Source of the DNA: an uncultured Bdellovibrionales bacterium
GTDB lineage: Bacteria; Patescibacteriota; Minisyncoccia; Moranbacterales; UBA1568
DNA length: 64,000 bases
Assembly: GCA_964436855.1 (NCBI GenBank)
Contig: CAYTED010000001.1
Coordinates: forward strand, 135,059 to 199,058
Direction of reading: 5' to 3'
The position numbers and the translations under genes were made by a program. Below, one piece after another: positions 9,542 through 45,449 of the stretch (position 1 is its first letter; every line of letters starts with the position of its first letter). The notes beneath the pieces are model-generated. The model was not told the origin of the DNA and ran no database searches. It worked only from the letters and a program-made list of their open reading frames with translations.

Positions 9542-10831
9542 CTATTTCCGTTCCTCGAGTTTTACCTTCACTTCTTTTTCCTCTCCCTTGTGCCAAATCT
9601 TGAGAGTCACTTCCGCTCCTGGCGCATACTGACCGATCACACTCGAAAGTGCATGATTTTTATCAAGTTTTGTCCCATCGATCTCAAGAATAATATCGTT
9701 TTCCACAAGCCCCACCTTATCAGCCGGCGATCCCGGAATAACCGCGAAATCCCGAACGGTTTCTCCGCGAGCAATAAAGACTCCGTAATCATACGCAAGA
9801 CCAAGTTCTTTTTTCATCGCTTCGTCGATCGGAACATACCGCACCCCAAGAAATGCGGTCGATATTTTCCCGGTTGTCTTCACTTGTTCGATTACCCGCT
9901 TCACTTGATTGATCGGAATGGCAAAACCGATATTTTCAGCACCCTGCGCCATCGCAACATTGACTCCGATCACTTCTCCTGAAACATTGAGGAGTGGTCC
10001 GCCGGAATTCCCGGGATTAATTGCCGCGTCGGTCTGAATAATGTCGAGGAGTTGTTCCGTATCGCCAAATCCCGATCCGGCCGTCACGCTTCGCTTGAGT
10101 CCCGACACGATGCCGCGCGACACCGAATTGGCAAATTCCCCGAGCGGATTGCCGATCGCAATCACCGTCTGCCCCGGCTTGAGCGAATCGGAATCTCCAA
10201 GCGGAAGATTCATAAAGTGGGACCCCTCGATCTTTACCAGCGCGATATCGTTTGATGGATCGCGAGCCAGTACGGTCGCGGGATACTCCGTTTCCCCCAC
10301 AAGCACGGTGTAATTTGCCGATTCATCAGAGACAACGTGCTTATTCGTTACAATCAATCCGTCATCCGAGACAAAAAACCCCGACCCGCTCCCCACCTGT
10401 TGTTGTTCCGTTCCGCCATTCCCCTGACCGCGCCCTTCGTGAGACGGATCACCGAAAAAAAACGGAAATCCGCCGAACGGCGATTGGAAAAAATTTCGGT
10501 ATTTCGGAACGTCTTTCGTAATAACGATACTCACCGTTCCCGACATCGACCGTTCAACGGCGGAAATAATTGCATTATCATCTTCAACAACCCGTTTTGT
10601 CTCGACCGATACCGCATCTTTTTTGTCTTGATTCGAAGGAAAGAAACGGGTAAACATTCCTTTGGAAACCAAAAGTCCAAAGAGTCCGATCGCGATCAAC
10701 GCCCCGGACAATCCGCCGATCATGCCGGCAAGGAAAAAAGTTCGACTCCGATCCTGTTTCCGATGCGCATCGGAGATATGTTCCGCATCAGAAACGGTTT
10801 TTTCTTCGGAAGAAAGAGGTGTTTCATCCAT
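9542..10831 (-). CDS. htrA: Serine protease HtrA/DegP (S1C) with PDZ domain; intact catalytic triad
   Basis: TNKHVV (His), NDIALVKI (Asp), GNSGGPLLN (Ser), C-terminal PDZ and an N-terminal TM anchor. Confidence 0.85.
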   Translation of the reverse strand: MDETPLSSEEKTVSDAEHISDAHRKQDRSRTFFLAGMIGGLSGALIAIGLFGLLVSKGMFTRFFPSNQDKKDAVSVETKRVVEDDNAIISAVERSMSGTVSIVITKDVPKYRNFFQSPFGGFPFFFGDPSHEGRGQGNGGTEQQQVGSGSGFFVSDDGLIVTNKHVVSDESANYTVLVGETEYPATVLARDPSNDIALVKIEGSHFMNLPLGDSDSLKPGQTVIAIGNPLGEFANSVSRGIVSGLKRSVTAGSGFGDTEQLLDIIQTDAAINPGNSGGPLLNVSGEVIGVNVAMAQGAENIGFAIPINQVKRVIEQVKTTGKISTAFLGVRYVPIDEAMKKELGLAYDYGVFIARGETVRDFAVIPGSPADKVGLVENDIILEIDGTKLDKNHALSSVIGQYAPGAEVTLKIWHKGEEKEVKVKLEERK

Positions 10832-10876: not shown

Positions 10877-11947
10877 TTACAAGAAAAATGCCGCTTCTCC
10901 GGGATTTTCTTTCAAGAGATCTTTTTCGAATGCCCGCATCGTCGGATCCCGAAACTCTATGCGCGCCGTTTCAAAATTCCAATTATATTCCGTATCCAGA
11001 ACCCATATTTTCATTTTCTTCATTTCTTCGGAAAGAAAATCCGCATAGACCGGCTTTCGGGTAAAAATCTGCCGGAGATGATATGATTTTTCCCCGTTTT
11101 CTTCTCGGATATCTTCCACGAGAACGATATGAAACCCCAATGAGCTCTCAAGAATATCCGTTGGAACGCCTTTTTTTGCATTTTCAACCGAATTTTGAAG
11201 CTCCGGCGCGAGATCTTCGGATACAAACCACCCGAGCGATCCGCCATCTGACGATGTCTTTCCTTCGGAATATTCCGTTGCAACGGAAGAAAACGATCGG
11301 CCGGAAGACAAAGCATCCGCCGCCTCACGTATCCGCTCGCGAGCGCGCGAAGTAACCGGAGATTCTTTTTCAAACACCTTCGCAAGCTCCTCTTGATAGA
11401 GTGCCGGCTTCACGATAGTTTTCTGAAAATCCGCAAGCGACCACCCATAGAGTCGCTTCATATCTTCGGTAACACGATCCCGCGATCCGTATTCATCAAG
11501 CTTTCTACGAACACTCTCTTCCGTCATTTCATCGGTTACCACGATTCCGCGAGCACGTGCAAGAGATTCCGCGGCGGCATCCTCAATCATCTTATTCAAA
11601 AGTTCCTTCTCTCGTATCTTCAGTCGCTTCATCCCATCTTCCGTGGAAAAATCTATTCGAATACCGTACGGAGAAAGATCCTGTGTTTCATAAAATCTCC
11701 GAATAGACGCGACATTTCGAGCAACTTCCGAAAATGAAAGAAAAGAAGTCTGATTCACGATAATTGCCGGAAACGGAGACACTCTTCGAACGGCATTGCC
11801 AAGCGCCCCCGGCACGGCATATGAGAAAACAACAAAAAGCGACAACAAAAGAAAAGCCAGCCCCAAAAAAGCAAACAACGGGATCTTGAGACGCGATCGC
11901 AATATATTGCCGTGAGTTTCTGTTTCCATAATATTTTTTTCATTCAA
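10877..11947 (-). CDS. Membrane-anchored PpiC-type (parvulin) peptidyl-prolyl isomerase, PrsA/SurA-like
   Basis: N-terminal TM helix. Parvulin signature GGSLGWFVSEDLAPELQ...LGFHIVLVEDIR. Confidence 0.7.
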   Translation of the reverse strand: MNEKNIMETETHGNILRSRLKIPLFAFLGLAFLLLSLFVVFSYAVPGALGNAVRRVSPFPAIIVNQTSFLSFSEVARNVASIRRFYETQDLSPYGIRIDFSTEDGMKRLKIREKELLNKMIEDAAAESLARARGIVVTDEMTEESVRRKLDEYGSRDRVTEDMKRLYGWSLADFQKTIVKPALYQEELAKVFEKESPVTSRARERIREAADALSSGRSFSSVATEYSEGKTSSDGGSLGWFVSEDLAPELQNSVENAKKGVPTDILESSLGFHIVLVEDIREENGEKSYHLRQIFTRKPVYADFLSEEMKKMKIWVLDTEYNWNFETARIEFRDPTMRAFEKDLLKENPGEAAFFL

Positions 11948-12330
11948 CGAAAAAGATCAAGCCACTGTTCCCAATTCGATCGCCGCACTCGCACGCCTCG
12001 ACTCTTTGCTCCGGCATCCTCTCCGCGCTTTCCTTCTTCCGATTCTTCACCCCGAAGCACCACCACCCTCTCATCCGTCTTCCGGTATCCGAGTTTTTCC
12101 TTCGCTTCACGCTCCTGAAAGGAATCCGATGAAAAATAATCTATTTTTTCTTTTAGCGCCTCGTTTTCTTCCTTCAGAGAAGACGCTTCCTGCTTTAATC
12201 GGTCAATGTCGGTTTCGATACCATTACTTCGCTCACGTTCTTTTCTGGAAAGAATGACCAGCCACACGGAAAGAAGAACCACGAGAAAAAGGGCTATCCT
12301 CGAAAATACCGATACGGACGATTCTTTCAT
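11944..12330 (-). CDS. ftsB: Septum formation initiator (FtsB/DivIC-like)
   Basis: TM anchor, then a coiled coil (LKQEASSLKEENEALKEKIDYF), then ...QEREAKEKLGYRKTDE, typical of FtsB/DivIC. Confidence 0.6.
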   Translation of the reverse strand: MKESSVSVFSRIALFLVVLLSVWLVILSRKERERSNGIETDIDRLKQEASSLKEENEALKEKIDYFSSDSFQEREAKEKLGYRKTDERVVVLRGEESEEGKRGEDAGAKSRGVRVRRSNWEQWLDLFR

Positions 12331-12507
12331 ACGTCTTCTTCCTCGGATTCGCCCGAATCAAATCAATAGAAAAACGGCGCAAAAAGAAAAACGATCATCG
12401 AAAGCGCCACCAGAATCGAGAGAGCCACCCATGCCGCGTATATTTTTCTGTGCCGACTGCGAAAATCTTTCATACCTGATCAGTATATCGTTTTTTTCAC
12501 ACAAAGA

Positions 12508-14538
12508 CTACCCCTCGGAATCTTTCCGAATGGATTGAATCATCGACCGGAGATCGGAAAGATTCGTCTCGGAACGTTTTCGAAGTGGGCGAATTTTCTT
12601 CGGCTCCATATGCGATACCTGCGAAAGTGTAACCGGACGATCAGAGGAAACATAGGCTACCGCTTCAATTTTTTTTTGCCCGGAAGATTCCTTCGGGCGA
12701 CTTCGTTGCCGATCCTTTTCTTCGGATGCTCGCGAAGATACGGCTCTGTCACCTGATTCTTTGTTTCGATTGGTGGTATTTCTCGCATTTGCCATTGCGC
12801 GTTGATAATCCCGCAGACAATCCTTGCAAAACGTCGGACGACTCCCATCCGGCTCAAACGGAACCTGAATATCGATTCCGCACGTATCGCACACCGCCTG
12901 ATAGAGCGTTCGCTCCGGTAATTCGGCATTATCGGAAACGGCAATGGGAGTAACAACACCTTCTCTTGCTCGTTTCGGCAAGGGAACGCTTTTCGATTCT
13001 TCTTTCGCTGGCGGAAGCGGATTTTTTTCTTCTTTCGGTACCGCCGCCCGCGCCTTTGTCTCGGTTGGCGCGAATGATTCTTGTTCCGTTTTTTTCGGCA
13101 GTATCGACAATTTCTTCTCCTTCAAAAATGACTCCTGTGTTTGCAATCCTTCATTCGACGCATCGTACCGAACGCGAGTTTTCGAAGGGCGTTCCTCGCG
13201 ATTTGGTACGCGTCGGTCCCCTTCGGCAATCGCTCGGCGCTCTTCTGCCGTAAGCATCCCGCTCCATCGGCGAATCTTGTCTTCCACCTCCTCACGCGAT
13301 GTCGCATACCGCTCCCGCGTCACACGAATCACCTTCTCCTCATTTTCAGCCGTCCCTTCTACGCGGATCGGCGGAAGCGTAATTGCGGAAAACGCATCAC
13401 CCGCGATCCCATCGATCATCAATTTGAGATAAATATGATACTTCGGAAGATTCACCAAGTCATTCGCCACAAACACCGGCTCGAATTCTTTTTCGAGAAA
13501 TTCTCCGTCCATCGCCCCGACCCGAAAGGATATAAGCGTCCCGGCATTCCCGAAAATCGCATTGCGCACTTTCTCGTCAATCTGTTCTACATATTGATTC
13601 GCAAGAATAAGGTTCAGACGGTATTTCCGGGCTTCGGAAAGAATATTCGCGAACGACTCCGTCGCAAAGTTCTGGAATTCATCGACATAGAGGTAGAAAT
13701 CATTTCGGGTTTCTTCGGGAATATCCACTCGCGCCATCGCGGCGAGCTGGATCTTCGTGATCATCATCGCGCCGAGGAGCGCGCTGTTGTCTTCGCCGAT
13801 CCGCCCCTTCGAAAGATTCATAATGAGGATTTTCTTCCCGTCCATCACGTCGCGAATATCAAAAGTCGATACCGTCTGACCCACGATATTGCGGATCAGG
13901 GAACTCGAGAGGAACTGCCCGACCTTGTTCTGGATCGGAGAAATCACTTCCTGAAGCACCCGATCATTCCACTTCGGAAATTCATCCACCCAAAACGACC
14001 GGATCACGGGATCGGTGATTTTCTCCACCACACGCTCCCGATATGATTTGTCGACAAGAATACGCGTTACGCCAAGAAGGGTCGACCCGGGATATTCAAG
14101 CAATGCGAGGATGGCGTTTCGCAAAATGTATTCGAGGCGCGGCCCCCACGAATCCGCCCAAATTTTCTTAAAGACACTGACGAGACCCGAAGCGACCAAG
14201 TGCCGATATTCGGGTGCAACTTTCTCCATCACATTGAACGCGATCGGGAAATCCTGATCTGCCGGATTGAAATAGATGACATCATTGATCCGATTCGCCG
14301 GAATCGCTTTGATCAATTTCTCCGACGTGTCGCCGTGTGGGTCGATGTAGGCGACTCCGTGACCATTCTGAATATCCTGAATGACAAGATTTTCGAGAAG
14401 ATTCGTCTTCCCCATACCCGTCTTTCCAATAATATACATATGCCGACGACGATCGTCAGTTTTGATACCGAACACGCGCTCCTGGTGCCGGAAATTCGTT
14501 TTCGCAAAAAAAGTGATTTCGTGTTTTTCCATACGCAA
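12508..14538 (-). CDS. VirD4/TraG/TraD-like coupling-protein-type P-loop ATPase. It lacks the usual N-terminal TM segments and carries a C-terminal CxxC-x17-CxxC zinc ribbon.
   Basis: Walker A IIGKTGMGKTN, Walker B YLYVDEFQNF, and a TraG-D_C-like LILANQYVEQ...FGNAGTLISF motif. The charged low-complexity tail contains CDTCG-x17-CKDC. The start is either a TTG directly after the upstream stop or the ATG 6 nt later. Confidence 0.6.
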   Translation of the reverse strand: MRMEKHEITFFAKTNFRHQERVFGIKTDDRRRHMYIIGKTGMGKTNLLENLVIQDIQNGHGVAYIDPHGDTSEKLIKAIPANRINDVIYFNPADQDFPIAFNVMEKVAPEYRHLVASGLVSVFKKIWADSWGPRLEYILRNAILALLEYPGSTLLGVTRILVDKSYRERVVEKITDPVIRSFWVDEFPKWNDRVLQEVISPIQNKVGQFLSSSLIRNIVGQTVSTFDIRDVMDGKKILIMNLSKGRIGEDNSALLGAMMITKIQLAAMARVDIPEETRNDFYLYVDEFQNFATESFANILSEARKYRLNLILANQYVEQIDEKVRNAIFGNAGTLISFRVGAMDGEFLEKEFEPVFVANDLVNLPKYHIYLKLMIDGIAGDAFSAITLPPIRVEGTAENEEKVIRVTRERYATSREEVEDKIRRWSGMLTAEERRAIAEGDRRVPNREERPSKTRVRYDASNEGLQTQESFLKEKKLSILPKKTEQESFAPTETKARAAVPKEEKNPLPPAKEESKSVPLPKRAREGVVTPIAVSDNAELPERTLYQAVCDTCGIDIQVPFEPDGSRPTFCKDCLRDYQRAMANARNTTNRNKESGDRAVSSRASEEKDRQRSRPKESSGQKKIEAVAYVSSDRPVTLSQVSHMEPKKIRPLRKRSETNLSDLRSMIQSIRKDSEG

Positions 14539-15831
14539 TTATTCGACAGGAAGATTTGCGGGCGCTCCGCCCTGCTTCGCCAGAACACGCGGAAGGGTCG
14601 GCGTCGCCACTACCATGTCGGGAATATGAAATACCGTCGCTAATTCTTCGGAACTCATATAAAACGTATTATCTCCGGCATCCCAATCCCGATCGCGATA
14701 CCGATAGTAGATCAGCCGCTGACGAAAACGAAGTCTCGGCTCAACAAAGAGAAAGTTCGCGTACGTCTTCGTGTCATCGATCGGCTTCACCCCGTTCAAA
14801 TTCATATCATTGAACTGCTTGATCGCACCAATAAGGGCGGACACCCCGGTACTCTTATCAAACACTTCCCGGCGACCGAGATAAAGATAGCGCATCTTGA
14901 TTTGAAACTGTTGCTTCCCGATATTCGATTCAAGTGCTTTTAAAATTTCTTTTTGCCCCGGCGTCAAACGAAACTCCAGTGGTTGCAGTTCCTTTTTCTC
15001 CGTTTTTAAATCGGTGAACTGCGGCTCAAGTGCCATCATCGCCGTCGGAATATTTTTCCCGATATCAAGAATATCGATGCCGAGTTGCTTGAAAAGACTA
15101 ACCTGCTCCGCCTCCGTCGCACCGATCAATCGCTGCACCGCCGGCTTTCCAAATTCTTTCACCCAATCCCCTTCCTTGCCGCGTGGCGCAACCAAATACT
15201 GAAGCCACATATGCTGCCCGGGGCCGGTCTTTGCCATCACTTCGGCAACTCCGGCGAGCGGATCAATCATTTTTCCGGTTACCGTTTCATCAAAGAATCG
15301 ATAGGTGCGTATCGGTATTGCCTGCTCTTTATTGGTAAATTCAAACTCGGTCCCCCAGAGGTCCCATTCTTTGTTTGGAATAGTCACCGGGACCCGCTCG
15401 ATATAGTCGGGAACCTCAAGAATCTCGATATTCGGATACTGCGCATAAAAATGCGCCTCGATCAAATTCTGATATTTTTTTTGCGTCCGGATATAGAAGT
15501 GCACATCTCCCTCCGTTCCGACGATTTCAAAACTGAAATAATCCGGAAGAAATCCCTGAATATACACTTCGACAATCGTCGGGTTTTTAATAACACCCGC
15601 GAGTCCGGCAAAAATCGACTCCATCAATTTCGGACTTTTTTCAACATCTTTCGGCGGGATAATCTCAAGCATTGTGCTTTTCAGCGAATGCTGATATTTC
15701 CGACGAACAAATTTAAGCCACAAAATCCTAAAAAGATAATAAAATGCGAATGGAAAAACAAGAAACCAAATATCGAGCACGACCCCGAAAATCCCGGAAA
15801 TTCCCTGAAAGAATTCTTGAAAAACATTCAT
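14539..15831 (-). CDS. N-terminally membrane-anchored protein of unknown function (one predicted TM helix), translationally coupled to the VirD4-like ATPase
   Basis: N-terminal TM helix (IFGVVLDIWFLVFPFAFYYLFRILWL) followed by about 390 aa of soluble sequence with no recognisable motif. Its stop abuts the start of the downstream gene. Confidence 0.4.
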   Translation of the reverse strand: MNVFQEFFQGISGIFGVVLDIWFLVFPFAFYYLFRILWLKFVRRKYQHSLKSTMLEIIPPKDVEKSPKLMESIFAGLAGVIKNPTIVEVYIQGFLPDYFSFEIVGTEGDVHFYIRTQKKYQNLIEAHFYAQYPNIEILEVPDYIERVPVTIPNKEWDLWGTEFEFTNKEQAIPIRTYRFFDETVTGKMIDPLAGVAEVMAKTGPGQHMWLQYLVAPRGKEGDWVKEFGKPAVQRLIGATEAEQVSLFKQLGIDILDIGKNIPTAMMALEPQFTDLKTEKKELQPLEFRLTPGQKEILKALESNIGKQQFQIKMRYLYLGRREVFDKSTGVSALIGAIKQFNDMNLNGVKPIDDTKTYANFLFVEPRLRFRQRLIYYRYRDRDWDAGDNTFYMSSEELATVFHIPDMVVATPTLPRVLAKQGGAPANLPVE

Positions 15832-15995
15832 AGCATCGGACGCTTCGGAAGGTTCTCCGTTACGCCAAAAGTATTGTAAAAATGTATCGAAACAAACAAC
15901 TCGTGAAAACGAAAAGCTTGAAAGCTTCTGCGTTTGCGTAAAATTTTTCCGTCACAGTCATCCCGCGTGGAAATGTTCGGAAAAACGAGCCGACA

Positions 15996-17075
15996 TTATT
16001 TCTTTCCCGTCTTCGCTGCCGTATAGAGATTCTTTCCCGCTTTCTCAAAAAAGAGATTCAAGTTAATCGCAACCGTCGAACGTTTTACTTCTCGAACTTT
16101 GAGCACTTCCGAGAGAATCGCCTCCTTCGACATCGGCGCCTTTGATTTCGCGAGAATGTCCGTAATAACATCTTTGACCGTTCCTTTGCGATACCCCCAG
16201 TCGGAAAGCGCATAAATCCCTCGCCCTACCAAAACAAAATCGGTATCCTTAATAAGTTCGTTGTGTACGGTCTGCGGATGCGTTTTTCGTCCCTCGCGAT
16301 TGAGCGCATATGTATCGATTTTTTCCGCAATCTCGCGAAAATGCATCGGCTTTCCGTTCATCTTCAACACCAGTCGCGCCTTCTCTCGTGTTCCGCGAGG
16401 TCGCACTTCGCTCCAGTGAGCAAGTCCCCACTTCCCAAACACATTCTCAAGCACCTCCGCCGAAACCTGAAGAAATCGTCGGACATTATCGGCAGAAATA
16501 TCCGGATGTTCTTTTTTCAAATGCACGAGAAATTCATCCCACTCAAGCACTTGCTTCGCATTTCCGAGAACCTTTTTTGCATTCTCGTGAACAGATTCCC
16601 AATATTCGAGAGAAAAATCCGTCAGACGATATGCCGCCATTCGTCCTTTTTCCATTTTTTCAAAATGAACAAATGGAAGACATTCAACAAACACAAGGAG
16701 AGCGCCAGACTCGCGAGCGTCATTTGCAGAGAGCTTCTTTTTCAAGGATTCCGCTTCCATTATACCATCGTTCTCGCGAAGGGTCGACTCGATCGTTTCT
16801 TTTGCGGAAAGAAACAGTGGGTGCTCTTTTTGAGTACGAATCAACCGAAGCCCATGCTCAACCACCTGCCTCACTCGTTCACGAGTAATTTTGTACGATC
16901 GCCCGATTTCCTCAAGTGTTTTCGGCTCGCCGGAAATCACACCAAAACGAGCTTCGAGAATATCCCGACTCCGTTCCGGAAGCCCCTGTAAAAGTTCGGT
17001 CAATGCGGAAACAAAAGAAAAGCGCTTCGCTTCCTTGGATATGCTCTTTATGGCTTTTTTGGGTTCATTTTTCAT
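15996..17075 (-). CDS. Sigma-70 region-4 HTH plus HARE-HTH (RNAP delta-like) domain DNA-binding protein
   Basis: LEEIGRSYKITRERVRQVVEHGLRLI is a canonical sigma-70 region 4.2. MHFREIAEKI...HPQTVHNELIKDTDFVLVGRGIYAL is HARE-HTH-like. Confidence 0.6.
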   Translation of the reverse strand: MKNEPKKAIKSISKEAKRFSFVSALTELLQGLPERSRDILEARFGVISGEPKTLEEIGRSYKITRERVRQVVEHGLRLIRTQKEHPLFLSAKETIESTLRENDGIMEAESLKKKLSANDARESGALLVFVECLPFVHFEKMEKGRMAAYRLTDFSLEYWESVHENAKKVLGNAKQVLEWDEFLVHLKKEHPDISADNVRRFLQVSAEVLENVFGKWGLAHWSEVRPRGTREKARLVLKMNGKPMHFREIAEKIDTYALNREGRKTHPQTVHNELIKDTDFVLVGRGIYALSDWGYRKGTVKDVITDILAKSKAPMSKEAILSEVLKVREVKRSTVAINLNLFFEKAGKNLYTAAKTGKK

Positions 17076-22751: not shown

Positions 22752-22824
22752 GGGCCCGTAGCTTAGTTGGTAGAGCACCGCATTTGCAATGCGGGGGTCA
22801 GCGGTTCGAATCCGCTCGGGTCCA
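22752..22824 (+). tRNA. tRNA-Ala (anticodon TGC)
   Basis: Cloverleaf folded by hand. Anticodon loop TTTGCAA. G3:U70 alanine identity pair. No encoded CCA. Confidence 0.85.
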
Positions 22825-22906
22825 CACGGTGCCGAACAAGAAAATTCCAGGCCTTGATTTTTTTGTTCTGTCATTGTATTCTGAGTTGGATTCTTTTCTC
22901 TCTTTT

Positions 22907-22980
22907 GGGTGATTAGCTCAGGTGGTTAGAGCGCGACACTGATAATGTCGAGGTCCCAAGTTCGAGTCTTGGATCACCCA
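22907..22980 (+). tRNA. tRNA-Ile (anticodon GAT)
   Basis: Acceptor GGGTGAT/ATCACCC; anticodon loop CTGATAA. Confidence 0.85.
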
Positions 22981-23003
22981 CAGTCCTTCAAATGGACTCA
23001 TAC

Positions 23004-23077
23004 AGCGGGGTGGAGCAGTCTGGCAGCTCGCCTGGCTCATAACCAGGAGGTCGGTGGTTCAAATCCACCCCCCGCAA
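23004..23077 (+). tRNA. Initiator tRNA-fMet (anticodon CAT)
   Basis: Near-identical to E. coli tRNA-fMet (GCGGGGTGGAGCAG...GGTTCAAATCC...CCCCGCAA). Unpaired 1:72 (A:A). Three G:C pairs in the anticodon stem. Confidence 0.85.
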
Positions 23078-23099
23078 CAAAAGAATAGCGCGAACAAGA

Positions 23100-23173
23100 G
23101 GCAGGGTAGCTCAGCTGGTTAGAGCACAGCACTCATAACGCTGAGGTCGTGGGTTCGAGCCCCACCCCTGCTA
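23100..23173 (+). tRNA. tRNA with CAT anticodon: elongator Met, or possibly lysidine-modified Ile2
   Basis: Acceptor GGCAGGG/CCCTGCT; anticodon loop CTCATAA. A31:C39 mismatch closing the anticodon stem. Confidence 0.7.
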
Positions 23174-23174
23174 C

Positions 23175-23639
23175 TTGAAGTCCGGTATCTGTGGCAAAAT
23201 AAATATGAGATCACCTGAAGGAAATATCGGAAATCCCCCTCTCCATTCCCGCGAAAGAAAAGGAGTGATTTCCAGGGAAGTCTCTTTCAAAGGATCTCCG
23301 ACATGGACAAGAAGAGAAAAGACCGCCGACAGCACCGCTCTCGAACAACCCATTACCGCCGACTCACTTGTTTCTCTTTTTACCAAAAGTGAAATTGGCG
23401 GAGATCTTTCACTCAAAGCCGCATTCGTAGCATTGGTTCAGGAATCAAATCTCGAACCGGAAACACTCACCGCTCTCAAGCAAAAACTCTCGTCGAGCGA
23501 CGTATCCGGACGAACCATGATTCTTGAATGTATGCGTGAATACCTCTCTGCATTGAGAAGCACAGCAAGCGACAAGTCAAAACGACTTGCTGCCGCCCGG
23601 ACCCGGTTCTCCGAAAGTACAAAAGGTTTTCTTCATTAA
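23175..23639 (+). CDS. Hypothetical small protein in the tRNA-Met / tRNA-Asp spacer (start may be the internal ATG at 23205)
   Basis: 154-aa ORF filling a 490-nt spacer inside the tRNA operon. No homology recognised. Confidence 0.25.
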   Translation: MKSGICGKINMRSPEGNIGNPPLHSRERKGVISREVSFKGSPTWTRREKTADSTALEQPITADSLVSLFTKSEIGGDLSLKAAFVALVQESNLEPETLTALKQKLSSSDVSGRTMILECMREYLSALRSTASDKSKRLAAARTRFSESTKGFLH

Positions 23640-23664
23640 AAATTGAAAATTTTGCAAAATTATT

Positions 23665-23741
23665 GGGGACGTAGCTCAGCTGGTTAGAGCGCCACACTGT
23701 CACTGTGGAGGTCGCGGGTTCGAGTCCCGTCGTCCCCGCCA
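23665..23741 (+). tRNA. tRNA-Asp (anticodon GTC), CCA encoded
   Basis: Acceptor GGGGACG/CGTCCCC, G73 discriminator, anticodon loop CTGTCAC, followed by CCA. Confidence 0.85.
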
Positions 23742-27519: not shown

Positions 27520-30372
27520 TCAATTTCCGCCCCGTTTCGCAAGTAGAGCCTCAAAAACCTCCGGAAAATCCTCAAAAACCTTCCCGAGATGAAGCGTTTG
27601 TCCGGAACGGATTTTTGCAAGATCTCCGCTTGTGATCCCATATTCCCGAGCCAGTGTTTCTTTTGGAAGTTCAGAAAGTCGACTAACAGTATTCTCAACA
27701 AGCGTATTTAACTCTCCGGTGGTTATTCCCTCAAATCGTGAATCGGAAAGCATCATCTCTTTCAACCCCTTCCAGACCGATCCGCCAGAAGATACTTTGT
27801 ATTCATACGACACCGTATCAATCGCACTCGATACATCCGGAATGGTCGTCGGAGAGGTAATTTCTCCAACCGCCAATCGCGACCCTAATGCCGGTTCTGA
27901 AAACGAAGCGGGCTCGAGTCCAAGCGATTGTCGAAGAGACACTACCGCATCATCAAGCGATCGTAAAAAACTCTCGATTTTCGGAAACTCAAAATCGATC
28001 CGATCAAGCGCTGGTTTTACAATACCATCGGAAAAAAGCGCGCCCGCATACGAAAACGCGCCGGCGGTGAGCGCGCCAAGGGATGTTTTTTGCACAATAT
28101 GCAGCCATTTTGCGCGATCTATTCGATGTTTTCTTGTATCAAGCACCGAAGATACCCGGTCCGAAAGCGCCTTGCTTACCGATTGATTTCCGCTCGAGAG
28201 AATCACTTCCGCCCTCGAAAGTTCCTGCAAAAGTGAAAGTTGTCGCAAAAACTGCTCATCCCCATCACCAAAAGCAATCAATCCATCCACGAGTTTCCTC
28301 CGAGTATAATCCACCCGCGCCCGCAAACGCTCCCGCATATCTCCATGCAATCGCTCAAGCACCTTTGAATCCAAAAGAGACTTGTCTTCCCCGGCACTCT
28401 TGGAAACCTTCCGTCGAGCCGCCTCGGCACGAAATTTCATTTTCCGAAAAAGCGGGCTTTCCTTATCAATACTGAATTCTTTCTCGATAATTTTTCGTTC
28501 ATCTTCGAGTTTTCTGATCAGCGACTCGACAGAAACAAAATTTTTCTCATACTTTTTGGTTTCTTTTTCAGATCGCACTTTCCCTCCATATCGGGTTTCT
28601 ACGGCATTTTCCTTGAGTTGTTGATTTGCCCGCATACCGGAAAAAATCGCCCCGCATACCGCCGGAGCGGCAATCCAGCCAAGCGTCTCCTTCACCACGG
28701 ATCGCGCAAGGATACCAAAAGCAAAGTATCCCGCATGTTCACCAAAAACACCCGTCGAAATCCGTCGCCACAAACTTGGATTTTTCGACGCATAAAATCT
28801 CCGCTCAAGCTCGGAATCTTCCCCGACCATTCGTCGAAGCTCAATTTGCGTATCCGTTTCATTGATTGCCACCAAAACATCTTTCAGATCAATACCCGTC
28901 TCTTTTTTTCGCGCAATCACGGAAGAAAATGACTGGAGGAGTTGATCTCTTGATTTTTCGTATTCCTTCTTGTTCTGTTGATATAATTCCCGATGCTCTG
29001 CGCTCGCATCCGGAAACGACCACTCATACGGAATCTCGGAAAGTTTTCGAGCGGCGGTATTCAATGTTGCCGAAGCATCCCGAACAGCGTCATTGGTTTC
29101 CAGAGAAAATTCTTTTGCGGAGAGAGAAAAAAAATCCACATTGAGTTTCCCAGAAACTCCGAATGACGCATCCGGTCCGTTTTTTGTTTTCTCAAGCAAA
29201 TTTCTCAACACTTCGCCATGGCTTTCCATTCCGGCGCTTCGAAATTCTTGTACCGTAAGGCGTTTTGTTTTTTCCAAACGAGCCGATCGAGAAAACGAAA
29301 GCCAAATGCGCCGAAAAAAACCGTCCGCATTCGATTCTTCTTCCGTGATTTTCCGACGGGATTCGGCATCGAGCCTGCCAAGCGTCGCGTATCGCATATT
29401 TTCAAACAGAAGTCGCTTTTTCCCATCAGAAAGCTTTTGAAATTCCGGAAAAGAAGCGAGTTCTTCTTTTGAAATTCCAAACTCTTTTTGAAAGAACACA
29501 TTCGTCCGCTCGACCTCATTTTTTTGGATTTCGCTCGCATCACTCCGACGTTTTTTCTTATCCAGAGCCGCGAGTCGAGCAGCTTTTTCTTTTCGTTGCT
29601 CGTGCATCAGAAGCAATTTTTTCCGATCAGCCTGTATTGTTTCTTTCAAAGAAGCGCGCTCATCTTCAGAAGCACCCAAGCTCGGCAGACGAGAAAAAAC
29701 TCGCTGCAATAAATTTTGCTTTTGAGAAAACGAGTCTTCCAATTTCTTGAGTCGGCGTTTGTTTGACTCAATGTCATCCATGAGCGAAACAACATCTCGA
29801 TCAATCTGTTCAAGAGAAGACGCGAGCACATGCCGGCCTATGTCTTCGTTTTCTTCCTCCGAAAGAACGCTTTCTCCAGCACCTTCAGCAATATCTTGTT
29901 CCGCTTCCTGAATAATCTCTTCGGGTGTCTGTACTTTTTTCGGTGCTTCCGATTCGTGAGATTCCTCTTCCTCAGGAAAATTGTCATCAACCGTTTTTTC
30001 TTCTATGGGCTCACCGGAAGGCGAGTCATTTATTTCTTGAGCACGCTTCGAAGAACGCTGACGAGAGAGTCCTTGCTGTTTCAGTTCGTTGAACACACGC
30101 TGAACACCCTGAGGAGAAATCATTCCCGAAAGATCATCGAGAGAGACTATCGATTGGCCTGCAGACTCACCCTCACGATGAAAAACCATCGCCTTCACCG
30201 GAACAAGAGGATCTCGTTCATCACGATACACGGAAACATTGTTCCCGCTTTCCTTATCAACAAAAGAAAATAAAACGAGTTTTTCCCGTTTCTGATCTCC
30301 CTCCTGCACATGAGGATCCAAATTTCTCAAACGATGAACCAAATCATCTCTGTCCGGACTTTTTTGTTTCAT
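27520..30372 (-). CDS. Giant (950 aa) charged, coiled-coil-rich protein with predicted internal TM helices; unknown function
   Basis: Long acidic and coiled-coil stretches. Hydrophobic segments HAGYFAFGILARSVV...AAPAVCGAIFSG and TSLGALTAGAFSYAGALF. Weak LysM-like C-terminus (ETLAREYGITSGDLAKIRSGQTLHLG). Confidence 0.5.
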   Translation of the reverse strand: MKQKSPDRDDLVHRLRNLDPHVQEGDQKREKLVLFSFVDKESGNNVSVYRDERDPLVPVKAMVFHREGESAGQSIVSLDDLSGMISPQGVQRVFNELKQQGLSRQRSSKRAQEINDSPSGEPIEEKTVDDNFPEEEESHESEAPKKVQTPEEIIQEAEQDIAEGAGESVLSEEENEDIGRHVLASSLEQIDRDVVSLMDDIESNKRRLKKLEDSFSQKQNLLQRVFSRLPSLGASEDERASLKETIQADRKKLLLMHEQRKEKAARLAALDKKKRRSDASEIQKNEVERTNVFFQKEFGISKEELASFPEFQKLSDGKKRLLFENMRYATLGRLDAESRRKITEEESNADGFFRRIWLSFSRSARLEKTKRLTVQEFRSAGMESHGEVLRNLLEKTKNGPDASFGVSGKLNVDFFSLSAKEFSLETNDAVRDASATLNTAARKLSEIPYEWSFPDASAEHRELYQQNKKEYEKSRDQLLQSFSSVIARKKETGIDLKDVLVAINETDTQIELRRMVGEDSELERRFYASKNPSLWRRISTGVFGEHAGYFAFGILARSVVKETLGWIAAPAVCGAIFSGMRANQQLKENAVETRYGGKVRSEKETKKYEKNFVSVESLIRKLEDERKIIEKEFSIDKESPLFRKMKFRAEAARRKVSKSAGEDKSLLDSKVLERLHGDMRERLRARVDYTRRKLVDGLIAFGDGDEQFLRQLSLLQELSRAEVILSSGNQSVSKALSDRVSSVLDTRKHRIDRAKWLHIVQKTSLGALTAGAFSYAGALFSDGIVKPALDRIDFEFPKIESFLRSLDDAVVSLRQSLGLEPASFSEPALGSRLAVGEITSPTTIPDVSSAIDTVSYEYKVSSGGSVWKGLKEMMLSDSRFEGITTGELNTLVENTVSRLSELPKETLAREYGITSGDLAKIRSGQTLHLGKVFEDFPEVFEALLAKRGGN

Positions 30373-44648: not shown

Positions 44649-45449
44649 TCAAAACCATATTCCGTAACTATACGGAAAAATTTTTTCTAAAAAGAGATGC
44701 GCGATAGCTCCGCATACAAGAAATGGTCCGAACGGAACTTTTGTTTTGAGATTCTTTCCCTGAAACAAAACGAGTGCGCCGCCATAAAGAGAACCGATAC
44801 CAAATGCCAGTGTCAGCGAAAAGAGGATATTCGGGATACCGATAGCAAGTCCGATAGCGAGAGCAAGCCATGCATCCCCCCATCCCATCCACGTTTCTTT
44901 GGAGAAAAAAGCGAGCGCCGCAAAAAAACTCCATGCAAGCACCCCTGCTATCACGCCCGATACCGTCCGCTCAAGCGACAAAACCGCTATCATACTCTCC
45001 GATCCGAAAAAATCCAAAAGAAGGAGAAATACAGCGGTCCACACGCCGGCAAACCAGAGAAAGGAAACCGGGATTTCCATTGTCCGAAAATCATACACCG
45101 CGATCGCGACAAAAATCGAAACCAGCCCGAGAATCCATATCGTCTCGATCCATGCGCTCCTGTCAAAAATATCAAAAAAATATTTTCCGGCGAGAAGAAA
45201 AAACGCTCCTGTCAAAAATTCGACCACCGGGTATTGCCACGAGATTTTTCCCCCGCAGTGCCGACACTTTCCGCGCAAAAAAAGAAATGACAGAATCGGA
45301 ATATTGTCGTACCAGCAAATCAACGCCCCGCATTTCGGACACTTCGACCGATCGGATACAAAACTCTCCCCCGCCTCCGTCCGAAGCACGAGCACATTGA
45401 GAAAGCTCCCTACAATACAACCAAGTCCGAAAAAAAAGAAAAAAGTCAT
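44649..45449 (-). CDS. pilD: Prepilin peptidase (A24 family) / N-methyltransferase
   Basis: N-terminal TM, zinc-binding CPKCG...CRHCGG, then a polytopic domain with the conserved Asp pair. Confidence 0.8.
   Translation of the reverse strand: MTFFFFFGLGCIVGSFLNVLVLRTEAGESFVSDRSKCPKCGALICWYDNIPILSFLFLRGKCRHCGGKISWQYPVVEFLTGAFFLLAGKYFFDIFDRSAWIETIWILGLVSIFVAIAVYDFRTMEIPVSFLWFAGVWTAVFLLLLDFFGSESMIAVLSLERTVSGVIAGVLAWSFFAALAFFSKETWMGWGDAWLALAIGLAIGIPNILFSLTLAFGIGSLYGGALVLFQGKNLKTKVPFGPFLVCGAIAHLFLEKIFPYSYGIWF

Follow-up and report, generated by a model that had tools for sequence, protein, structure and literature searches.

A split coupling-protein-type ATPase with a DUF8128 membrane partner and a conserved HARE-HTH neighbour in Candidatus Moraniibacteriota

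Introduction

To which machinery the 'orphan' VirD4-like ATPases of Patescibacteria belong is the question raised by three adjacent minus-strand genes, referred to below as HARE (15996-17075), MEM (14539-15831) and ATP (12508-14538), in a 64,000-nucleotide stretch of contig CAYTED010000001.1 (hereafter the window). The source chromosome belongs to Candidatus Moraniibacteriota (Patescibacteria) according to the names of protein homologues (Candidatus Moranbacteria/Moraniibacteriota). VirD4-like genes, 5713 in all, have been found in 2918 of 3035 Patescibacteria genomes (96%), VirB4 in 2417 of the 3035, and only 148 of the 5713 VirD4-like genes lie near virB4; the authors left open whether these orphan genes, approximately two per genome, have been exapted (Quinonero-Coronel et al. 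2025, PMC12102498). A detection rate of about 80% per gene, applied to one VirB4 and two coupling-type paralogues, would yield almost exactly 80% and 96%. Because such a rate alone reproduces the published frequencies, they are no proof that the ATPase works independently of a type IV secretion system (T4SS).

An earlier reading of the same DNA, made without database searches (hereafter the sequence-only reading), had described the three open reading frames (ORFs) as an apparent functional unit, and their coordinates and all the features ascribed to them were recovered in the present analysis. Here, we report that MEM and ATP correspond to a single protein in other lineages, and that the pair is accompanied by HARE across distant members of the candidate phyla radiation (CPR). 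We consider it reasonably probable that MEM and ATP form a split coupling-protein-type nucleic-acid translocase, for which a separately encoded patescibacterial T4SS is the most likely channel.

MEM and ATP as halves of one protein

Sequence comparison shows that gene fission has here divided one protein into MEM and ATP, since the two are fused in other CPR lineages, in conjugative plasmids of Bacillus and actinomycetes, and in Bacillus phages. In the window, the MEM stop codon (14539-14541) abuts the TTG start codon of ATP at 14538, and an in-frame ATG lies two codons past this TTG. The PHROG family phrog_5156 (824 positions) is matched by MEM at its N-terminus and by ATP at positions 407-809. 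For phage G gp156 (825 aa), hhalign gives an alignment to MEM at 94% probability, and its identity to the ATP core is 29%; a 913-aa protein from a 63-kb Bacillus subtilis plasmid, for which PF26449 is a precomputed annotation, aligns to MEM with 97.5% probability (E 5e-12). A profile of the fused proteins retrieved approximately 18 proteins of 816-1107 aa containing both PF26449 and TrwB_AAD_bind, those with an organism name coming from candidate division WS5, WWE3 and Candidatus Jacksonbacteria. In alignments, residues ~1-400 of these approximately 18 fused CPR proteins correspond to MEM and residues ~395-830 to ATP, and the junction coincides exactly with the point where MEM stops and ATP starts. 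The fused relatives also carry the N-terminal anchor, and the fused DUF8128-ATPase is the ancestral state in these relatives.

The plasmid proteins (B. subtilis, 913 aa; Peribacillus, 870 aa; Embleya, 812 aa) and the phage proteins (G gp156, JL, the SPO1 group) have the two domains of MEM and ATP arranged in the same order and joined at a colinear junction, and their ATPase core is 24-33% identical to that of ATP. They differ in being single polypeptides, in having no HARE partner and, for the plasmid proteins, in adjoining Replic_Relax and Tcp/PrgI/VirB4-like genes on mobile elements. On the Embleya plasmid, the order is PrgI, a VirB4-like ATPase, the fused protein, Replic_Relax and an NlpC/P60 hydrolase; on the B. 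subtilis and Peribacillus plasmids, Replic_Relax, a conjugal transfer protein and TcpE are encoded after the fused protein, and the B. subtilis locus also has TcpD and a large ATP-binding protein. Since fused relatives sit in such loci, the family can be taken to supply one class of monoderm conjugation loci with its coupling-protein-type ATPase. A BLASTP comparison of the HARE protein with the Replic_Relax neighbour of the fused plasmid proteins found the two to be unrelated. In the jumbo Bacillus phage G (L081:1220-5864), the VirB4-like gp155 is followed by the fused gp156 and then by an HNH endonuclease. The ATP core alone has 454 plasmid matches, from Streptomyces, Bacillus, Staphylococcus, Clostridium, haloarchaea, Sulfolobus and Pseudomonas. 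No experimental characterisation of the fused plasmid or phage DUF8128-ATPases was found in the literature.

Several further relatives deserve mention. ATPase homologues are present in phages of the SPO1 group and in CP-51/JL phages. A fused form from WWE3 (L173:6001-8829) bears a C-terminal S1 RNA-binding domain in place of the zinc ribbon described below. A common gene order of TopA, one small gene, HARE and fused ATPase is found in a WS5 locus (L174:947-5912), where DprA precedes TopA, and in Southlakia of the Saccharimonadia (SEML1_0293-0296). The only IMG/VR contig with a DUF8128 match (L166, IMGVR_UViG_3300009537_000513) holds the end of a MEM homologue and the start of an ATPase homologue at a contig edge; although classed as viral, this contig may come from a CPR bacterium.

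The membrane-anchored DUF8128 half

MEM encodes a 430-aa DUF8128 (PF26449) protein which, on the evidence of precomputed Pfam annotation and of the fused relatives, is the membrane-anchored N-terminal half of the split ATPase. PF26449 is the precomputed annotation of the identical protein (P0001) and of all its listed homologues; local Pfam, NCBIfam and PADLOC scans of MEM were empty, the local Pfam copy having no PF26449 model. Among 1.84 billion representatives, a profile search gave 2473 DUF8128 clusters at 50% identity. In a Kyte-Doolittle scan, the sole hydrophobic stretch of MEM is an N-terminal anchor at aa 7-39 (15715-15813), and AlphaFold2 models aa 2-47 as one long helix, so that both agree with the single N-terminal transmembrane (TM) helix that had been predicted for this protein. 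A basic stretch, KFVRRKYQ, follows the anchor and would, by the positive-inside rule, place the soluble domain in the cytoplasm.

The soluble DUF8128 domain (aa 48-400; 14632-15690) is predicted by AlphaFold2 and Foldseek to have a VirB4-like fold. The model of aa 48-430, built from 110 sequences, has a predicted local distance difference test score (pLDDT) of 83 and a predicted template modelling score (pTM) of 0.79, and it supersedes an earlier model from 22 sequences with a pLDDT of 63. Against PDB, Foldseek matched this model to five full-length TrwK/VirB4 chains of R388 (E 1.3e-5 to 2e-3, probability 0.95-1.0), all other PDB matches having E >= 0.025. Because no ATPase-domain-only VirB4 entry and no TrwB entry in PDB was matched, the similarity probably lies on the N-terminal domain of VirB4. 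Matches in BFVD comprised phage G gp156 (3e-17), proteins of phages Slash and JL, and the VirB4-like gp155 (8e-7). At the sequence level, a hidden Markov model (HMM) of MEM found no match among PDB sequences, tblastn of MEM found none in phage records, and hhalign of the MEM profile with a TcpF-like 854-aa ATPase and a Bradyrhizobium 708-aa protein returned nothing.

The C-terminal tail of MEM (aa 393-430, EELATVFHIPD..AP..R..AK.GGAP.NLP; 14542-14655) is nearly invariant over its 38 residues though predicted to be disordered (pLDDT <50), and it aligns to the domain junction of the fused proteins. This tail may be the former inter-domain linker, serving now as a docking peptide for the soluble ATPase. 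Such a role would fit the PxNLP repeat seen at the very end of long DUF8128 forms: proteins of 605-680 aa (P0225, P0252, P0262, P0224, P0241) carry a low-complexity extension of 150-250 aa, which is terminated by a second copy of (A/P)PxNLP(F/I/V), as if the extreme C-terminus were required. The proposal that MEM is the detached TM domain of the ATPase holds in so far as MEM is anchored and is encoded by a separate gene, but falls short in that MEM also comprises a DUF8128 domain of 390 aa with a predicted VirB4-like fold.

The soluble ATPase half

ATP encodes, according to Pfam and NCBIfam, a soluble 676-aa ATPase of the VirD4/TrwB/TraD family, corresponding to the C-terminal half of the split protein. 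HMM searches that the sequence-only reading had named as a check found TrwB_AAD_bind (43.3 bits, cut-off 20.5; aa 27-337), TraG-D_C (26 bits, cut-off 22; aa 282-341) and the zinc-ribbon model TIGR04272. Coupling proteins have an all-alpha domain inserted in the nucleotide-binding domain; in ATP, the TrwB_AAD_bind match is continuous and spans the region between the Walker motifs. The closest solved structures are the coupling proteins DotL and TrwB. The motor core, supported by Pfam matches and conservation, covers aa 10-425 (13264-14511) and includes Walker A (GKTGMGKT, aa 38-45; 14404-14427), retained in 56 of 57 complete ATP homologues, and Walker B (YLYVDE, aa 282-287; 13678-13695).

The core is followed by a variable charged tail with a CxxC-x17-CxxC zinc ribbon (aa 543-576, 12811-12912; zf_Tbcl_2 6.3e-12, TIGR04272 3.6e-13), in which C550, C553, C571 and C574 are spaced exactly x2-x17-x2, and which 32 of the 57 homologues share. 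Close to the end lies an amphipathic peptide of the form NLSDLRSMIQSI (aa 657-670; 12529-12570); a motif of this form occurs in the last 60 residues of 38 of the 57 homologues, compared with 0.7 expected in shuffled tails. The Walker A and B motifs, the TraG-D_C-like motif and the ribbon in a charged tail are thus as the sequence-only reading had them, and its statement that the ATPase has no membrane anchor of its own agrees with the Kyte-Doolittle scan of ATP, where no hydrophobic segment was found.

Other family assignments of ATP were rejected. As a VirB4, it scores only 14 bits with TIGR00929 (E 0.0092) against a cut-off of 643, with no AAA_10 or CagE match. It is no canonical FtsK/SpoIIIE either, the identity that the sequence-only reading had set against its own, as it lacks both the 4TM and the gamma domain and shows no match to FtsK_SpoIIIE at E <= 0.01. 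The PADLOC model mad8 matches ATP with E 1.9e-18, and HerA and DndH more weakly; membership of a MADS defence system was rejected in view of the housekeeping neighbours and of the lack of any other PADLOC match in the three genes. A weak NCBIfam match to CedD/CedB is confined to the P-loop region. A second, shorter coupling-type paralogue of 480 aa without a zinc ribbon was seen at one locus, two genes after the first (L131:9196-10905 and 11021-12463); in front of it is encoded a cysteine-rich protein of 569 aa in which zinc-ribbon-like CxxC...CPEC repeats are numerous.

Conservation of the gene cluster

The order HARE, MEM, ATP is kept in all 80 Moraniibacteriota loci. Among 80 distant metagenome loci, in which the MEM homologue is 32-54% identical, ATP follows MEM in 64 of 71 informative cases and HARE precedes MEM in 55 of 61, and HARE together with the fused ATPase is also found in WS5 and Southlakia. 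Together with the fusion in many relatives, these counts bear out the co-conservation of MEM and the ATPase across Patescibacteria, on which the sequence-only reading had made its proposal depend. The flanks of the trio are wholly different between lineages and include genes for ribonucleotide reductase, elongation factor P (EF-P) and glutamate dehydrogenase. The MEM-ATP pair is vertically inherited and under strong constraint, and HARE is its near-constant upstream neighbour across distant CPR classes. In 21 loci in which SecD and SecF are present along with the three genes, the ATPase core shows a mean pairwise identity of 63%, compared with 56% for SecD, 48% for SecF, 42% for MEM and 41% for HARE.

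In 36 of the distant metagenome loci (L097, L113, L119, L160 and 32 more), SecD and SecF, identified by sequence motifs, directly precede HARE on the same strand, with a median gap of 70 nt and approximately 2.5 kb upstream of the MEM homologue. Many lineages other than Moraniibacteriota thus have a five-gene array of SecD, SecF, HARE, DUF8128 and ATPase genes. In addition, a stand-alone DUF8128 protein of 460-490 aa without a following ATPase is encoded at seven loci (L175:12983-14365, L150, L151, L155, L156, L158, L162), often adjoining a Dus gene or other housekeeping genes. The L175 contig carries both a fused DUF8128-ATPase and a stand-alone copy; the seven loci and the presence of both forms in one genome therefore reveal a second DUF8128 paralogue.

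The HARE protein and the unity of the cluster

HARE encodes a 359-aa protein in which Pfam detects a sigma-70 region 4 helix-turn-helix (Sigma70_r4, aa 28-80, 16836-16994; E 1.7e-14) and a HARE-HTH winged helix (aa 231-293, 16197-16385; E 2.5e-12), accompanied by further winged-helix domains; the fusion of these two named domains had been recognised in the sequence-only reading. In an alignment of 55 HARE sequences, Sigma70_r4 is the most conserved N-terminal block, and the HARE-HTH domain is also strongly conserved. The closest solved structures are region 4 of primary sigma factors. The protein was rejected as a sigma factor of the sigma-70 family, since Pfam finds region 4 but no region 2 and all sigma equivalog models in NCBIfam score far below their cut-offs. 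It was likewise rejected as the RNA polymerase delta subunit (RpoE), as TIGR04567 reaches 36.1 bits against a cut-off of 42 and covers the HARE-HTH only.

Genetic data are available for the relatives in Southlakia epibionticum. SEML1_0294 (349 aa, Sigma70_r4 and HARE-HTH) is essential in transposon sequencing (Tn-seq), and SEML1_0293, a 921-aa protein encoded directly downstream on the same strand with TrwB_AAD_bind at 402-719, is non-essential, its read counts dropping about four-fold over the time course (Wang et al. 2023, PMC10633639 Table S1). A second ATPase paralogue, SEML1_0142, is essential, and the families of SEML1_0293, 0294 and 0142 are flagged as core and Patescibacteria-enriched (PMC10633639). 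Because of its size and its position after the HARE orthologue, SEML1_0293 is very likely orthologous to a fused MEM-ATP. Since the HARE orthologue is essential and the adjacent ATPase is dispensable, the HARE protein must itself serve an essential function, probably one in transcription or DNA binding. For this reason, the trio is to be seen as a conserved gene cluster and not strictly as a single-purpose machine. The claim of one functional unit therefore stands for MEM and ATP, as halves of one protein, and for the co-inheritance of HARE, but not for a strict functional dependence of HARE on the ATPase, which is dispensable where HARE is essential.

How far HARE is tied to the translocase can be weighed against the most durable of the rival explanations, which we think quite conceivable, if on balance doubtful: that the genes are conserved neighbours and not one machine, HARE being a general essential transcription or nucleoid factor, and the adjacency reflecting an ancient operon or regulation of the ATPase genes. 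With the downstream ATPase non-essential, a polar effect cannot explain the essentiality of SEML1_0294. The kinship of region 4 to primary sigma factors and the approach of the HARE-HTH to the delta model (36 bits) are consistent with this explanation, as are the absence of the upstream HARE gene from a few loci and the gaps, which measure 164 nt between HARE and MEM but 0 nt between MEM and ATP here, with medians across loci of 40 and 20 nt, respectively. However, the adjacency of HARE and the ATPase survives from Moraniibacteriota to Saccharimonadia and WS5 while all other neighbours change, which is unusual for unrelated genes. Moreover, a DNA-binding accessory protein, for example TraM or TrwA, is a typical partner of coupling proteins. 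The HARE gene is probably co-transcribed with MEM and ATP.

A putative translocase and its channel

In the mechanism that we favour, MEM would be bitopic, its short N-terminus lying on the outer side of the membrane and its single anchor leading to a cytoplasmic domain of ~390 aa with a fold like that of the VirB4 N-terminal domain. ATP would form, by homology with TrwB, a hexameric Walker A/B motor under the membrane, which MEM would anchor and organise at the cytoplasmic face, its C-terminal peptide (..AP.NLP) docking the soluble ATPase. The tail of ATP, with its zinc ribbon here and S1 domain in WWE3 as well as the terminal amphipathic peptide, might recruit the substrate or an adaptor. The motor would then deliver a nucleic-acid substrate, be it DNA or nucleoprotein, into a membrane channel; under laboratory co-culture, cells can do without this process. 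The favoured channel is the separately encoded patescibacterial T4SS, which would be without a coupling protein in cis, and uptake through ComEC is the main alternative. The T4SS is preferred because, to our knowledge, all characterised members of the coupling-protein family work with a T4SS, because the fused relatives occur in such loci, and because the CPR T4SS lacks a coupling protein in cis. In evolutionary terms, a coupling protein of a conjugation locus would have become a vertically inherited, strongly constrained chromosomal core gene in Patescibacteria.

Known systems resemble this arrangement in part. Coupling proteins (VirD4, TrwB of R388, TraD, DotL) share with ATP the Walker A/B domain, the TrwB_AAD_bind and TraG-D_C matches, and a tail that could recruit a partner. 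Unlike them, ATP has no two-helix TM domain, the anchor being the separate MEM with its DUF8128 domain; its tail bears a zinc ribbon (S1 in the WWE3 relative); and it is a very slowly changing chromosomal core gene without VirB4 or relaxase nearby in the window or in approximately 165 related loci. With VirB4 (TrwK of R388), the pair would have in common the layout of an N-terminal domain and a motor, the DUF8128 model matching the former, whereas the ATP motor scores as a coupling protein. A separate anchor has a precedent in pIP501, where TraI is a putative membrane anchor of TraJ, a coupling protein without a TM domain (PMC13037476). As far as the described layout goes, TraJ and TraI are alike in arrangement to ATP and MEM, a soluble VirD4-like ATPase with a separate anchor, but unlike these they lie inside a plasmid tra operon. 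Finally, the orphan VirD4-like genes (Quinonero-Coronel et al. 2025) and SEML1_0293 (Wang et al. 2023) represent the same gene family as ATP; no account of the DUF8128 half, its VirB4-like fold, the fission and fusion or the HARE partner was seen in these two papers.

Several observations weigh against this interpretation. Neither the window nor the approximately 165 related loci show a T4SS, relaxase or competence gene linked to the cluster, and relaxases are rare, with 109 counted in 3035 Patescibacteria genomes, of which 103 carry them (PMC12102498). The T4SS of Southlakia is essential and the fused ATPase is not (PMC10633639), which indicates that the T4SS can perform its essential task without this ATPase paralogue; the DUF8128 half of SEML1_0293 is itself presumed from protein size and gene position. 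The VirB4-like fold comes from Foldseek alone, with TM-scores of 0.34-0.41 and the aligned VirB4 residues not reported. Comparison of the MEM profile by hhalign with the VirB4-like gp155 of phage G and with TrsD of pGO1 disclosed no sequence similarity; the hhalign comparisons being empty, the link between MEM and VirB4 is purely structural. The zinc ribbon is missing from 44% of ATP homologues, and the nature of the substrate is suggested solely by family membership and by the tail domains.

As for the channel, an unlikely but still live alternative is that the split ATPase is a DNA-uptake motor, which would pull DNA through ComEC or another import channel in place of ComFA, its tail gripping single-stranded DNA. 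The fused ATPase of Southlakia is dispensable like ComEC, which is non-essential there, and no ComFA is annotated in the Tn-seq tables (PMC10633639). The tails of ATP homologues hold modules predicted to bind single-stranded nucleic acid, DprA and TopA lie just upstream of HARE and the fused ATPase in the WS5 genome, and the weak CedD/CedB match also fits uptake. ATPases derived from T4SSs do import DNA in the ComB system of Helicobacter pylori and in the archaeal Ced systems. On the other side, the CedD/CedB similarity is limited to the P-loop, dprA-topA adjacency is common in bacteria whatever the other neighbours, and we know of no member of the coupling-protein family that works with ComEC. 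The sequence-only reading had suggested that, with type IV pilus and ComFC genes nearby, this could be a case of DNA uptake and not of conjugation. This argument fails, since the type IV pilus cluster of the window (PilD at 44649-45449, then PilC, PilT, PilB, PilO and PilM, to 56100; 44.6-56.1 kb) lies more than 27 kb from the trio, and the pilus genes are not syntenic with it in any related locus; nor did the examined loci show synteny with a competence gene. ComFC was not located among the window ORFs scanned. DNA uptake as such would still fit the dispensability of the ATPase in Southlakia.

A more far-reaching scenario, which we regard as rather improbable, is that the DUF8128-ATPase family stands, in evolutionary terms, between VirB4 and VirD4, with an N-terminal domain of the VirB4 type fused to a motor of the coupling-protein type, and that it was domesticated in Patescibacteria as a T4SS-independent, phylum-wide DNA or RNA translocase. 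It might, for example, be the motor otherwise lacking for the import of host or environmental nucleic acid, targeted by an essential HARE protein that links DNA recognition or transcription to the membrane.

The two remaining explanations appear very improbable. An ATPase for chromosome segregation or division akin to FtsK was suggested by the FtsB gene that directly follows ATP; a Pfam scan places FtsB/DivIC (11944-12330), a PPIC-type peptidyl-prolyl isomerase (PPIase; 10877-11947) and HtrA (9542-10831) downstream on the minus strand, in the orientation that the sequence-only reading had given. These genes follow the trio in approximately 50 of the 80 Moraniibacteriota loci, and ATP is a very highly conserved member of the wider FtsK-HerA superfamily, but the FtsB linkage is lost outside Moraniibacteriota, ATP lacks the FtsK domains listed above, and Southlakia, where the fused ATPase is dispensable, has a separate canonical FtsK (SEML1_0096) that is essential and a core family (PMC10633639), so that this idea is already largely refuted. 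Hardly more credible is a mobile-element remnant or cargo, or an anti-phage defence ATPase (HerA- or mad8-like), since the mad8 match, the relatives on plasmids and in phages, and the CRISPR-Cas9 locus adjoining the Southlakia pair SEML1_0293-0294 are opposed by housekeeping flanks (MsrA, ClpB, SecDF, EF-P, AspS), a base composition uniform across the window, vertical conservation with the ATPase core above SecD and SecF, classification as a core family, and the absence of other defence-system components nearby.

Other features of the window

A scan of the large ORFs of the window found no VirB4, relaxase or FtsK, the first two in keeping with the sequence-only reading. Apart from the genes discussed above, the large ORFs encode housekeeping proteins, namely ClpB, DNA ligase, GatA/B, HisS, MsrA/B, a DEAD-box helicase, DsbB and QueH. 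Scans for promoters and terminators did no better than chance. A 36-codon ORF (MKDFRSRHRKIYAAWVALSILVALSMIVFLFAPFFY) in the gap between ATP and FtsB (12363-12473, minus strand), read by eye, possibly encodes a small membrane protein. A 950-aa ORF at 27520-30372 on the minus strand has no Pfam match at E <= 1e-5. Nearly all long ORFs lie on the minus strand, GC skew is negative in every 2-kb bin of 1-64000, and five tRNA genes (Ala, Ile, Met, Met, Asp) are located on the plus strand at 22752-23741.

Conclusions

The orphan VirD4-like genes and DUF8128 are already on record, each separately. A literature search found no description of the link between DUF8128 and the ATPase, the VirB4-like fold, the series of fissions and fusions, the relatives on conjugative plasmids or the HARE partner, and there is no mention of the module in a jumbo-phage review or in the HARE-HTH literature. 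One of the approximately two orphan VirD4-like genes per genome now has a defined split architecture, with a DUF8128 half for which a VirB4-like fold is predicted, along with relatives in real monoderm conjugation loci, a conserved DNA-binding neighbour and strikingly high sequence constraint. DUF8128, in turn, is placed in a context of structure and function. Much of bacterial diversity is patescibacterial, and the manner in which these bacteria and their hosts exchange material has yet to be explained. In Southlakia, which is genetically tractable, it could be established whether a route derived from conjugation serves CPR bacteria in moving DNA.

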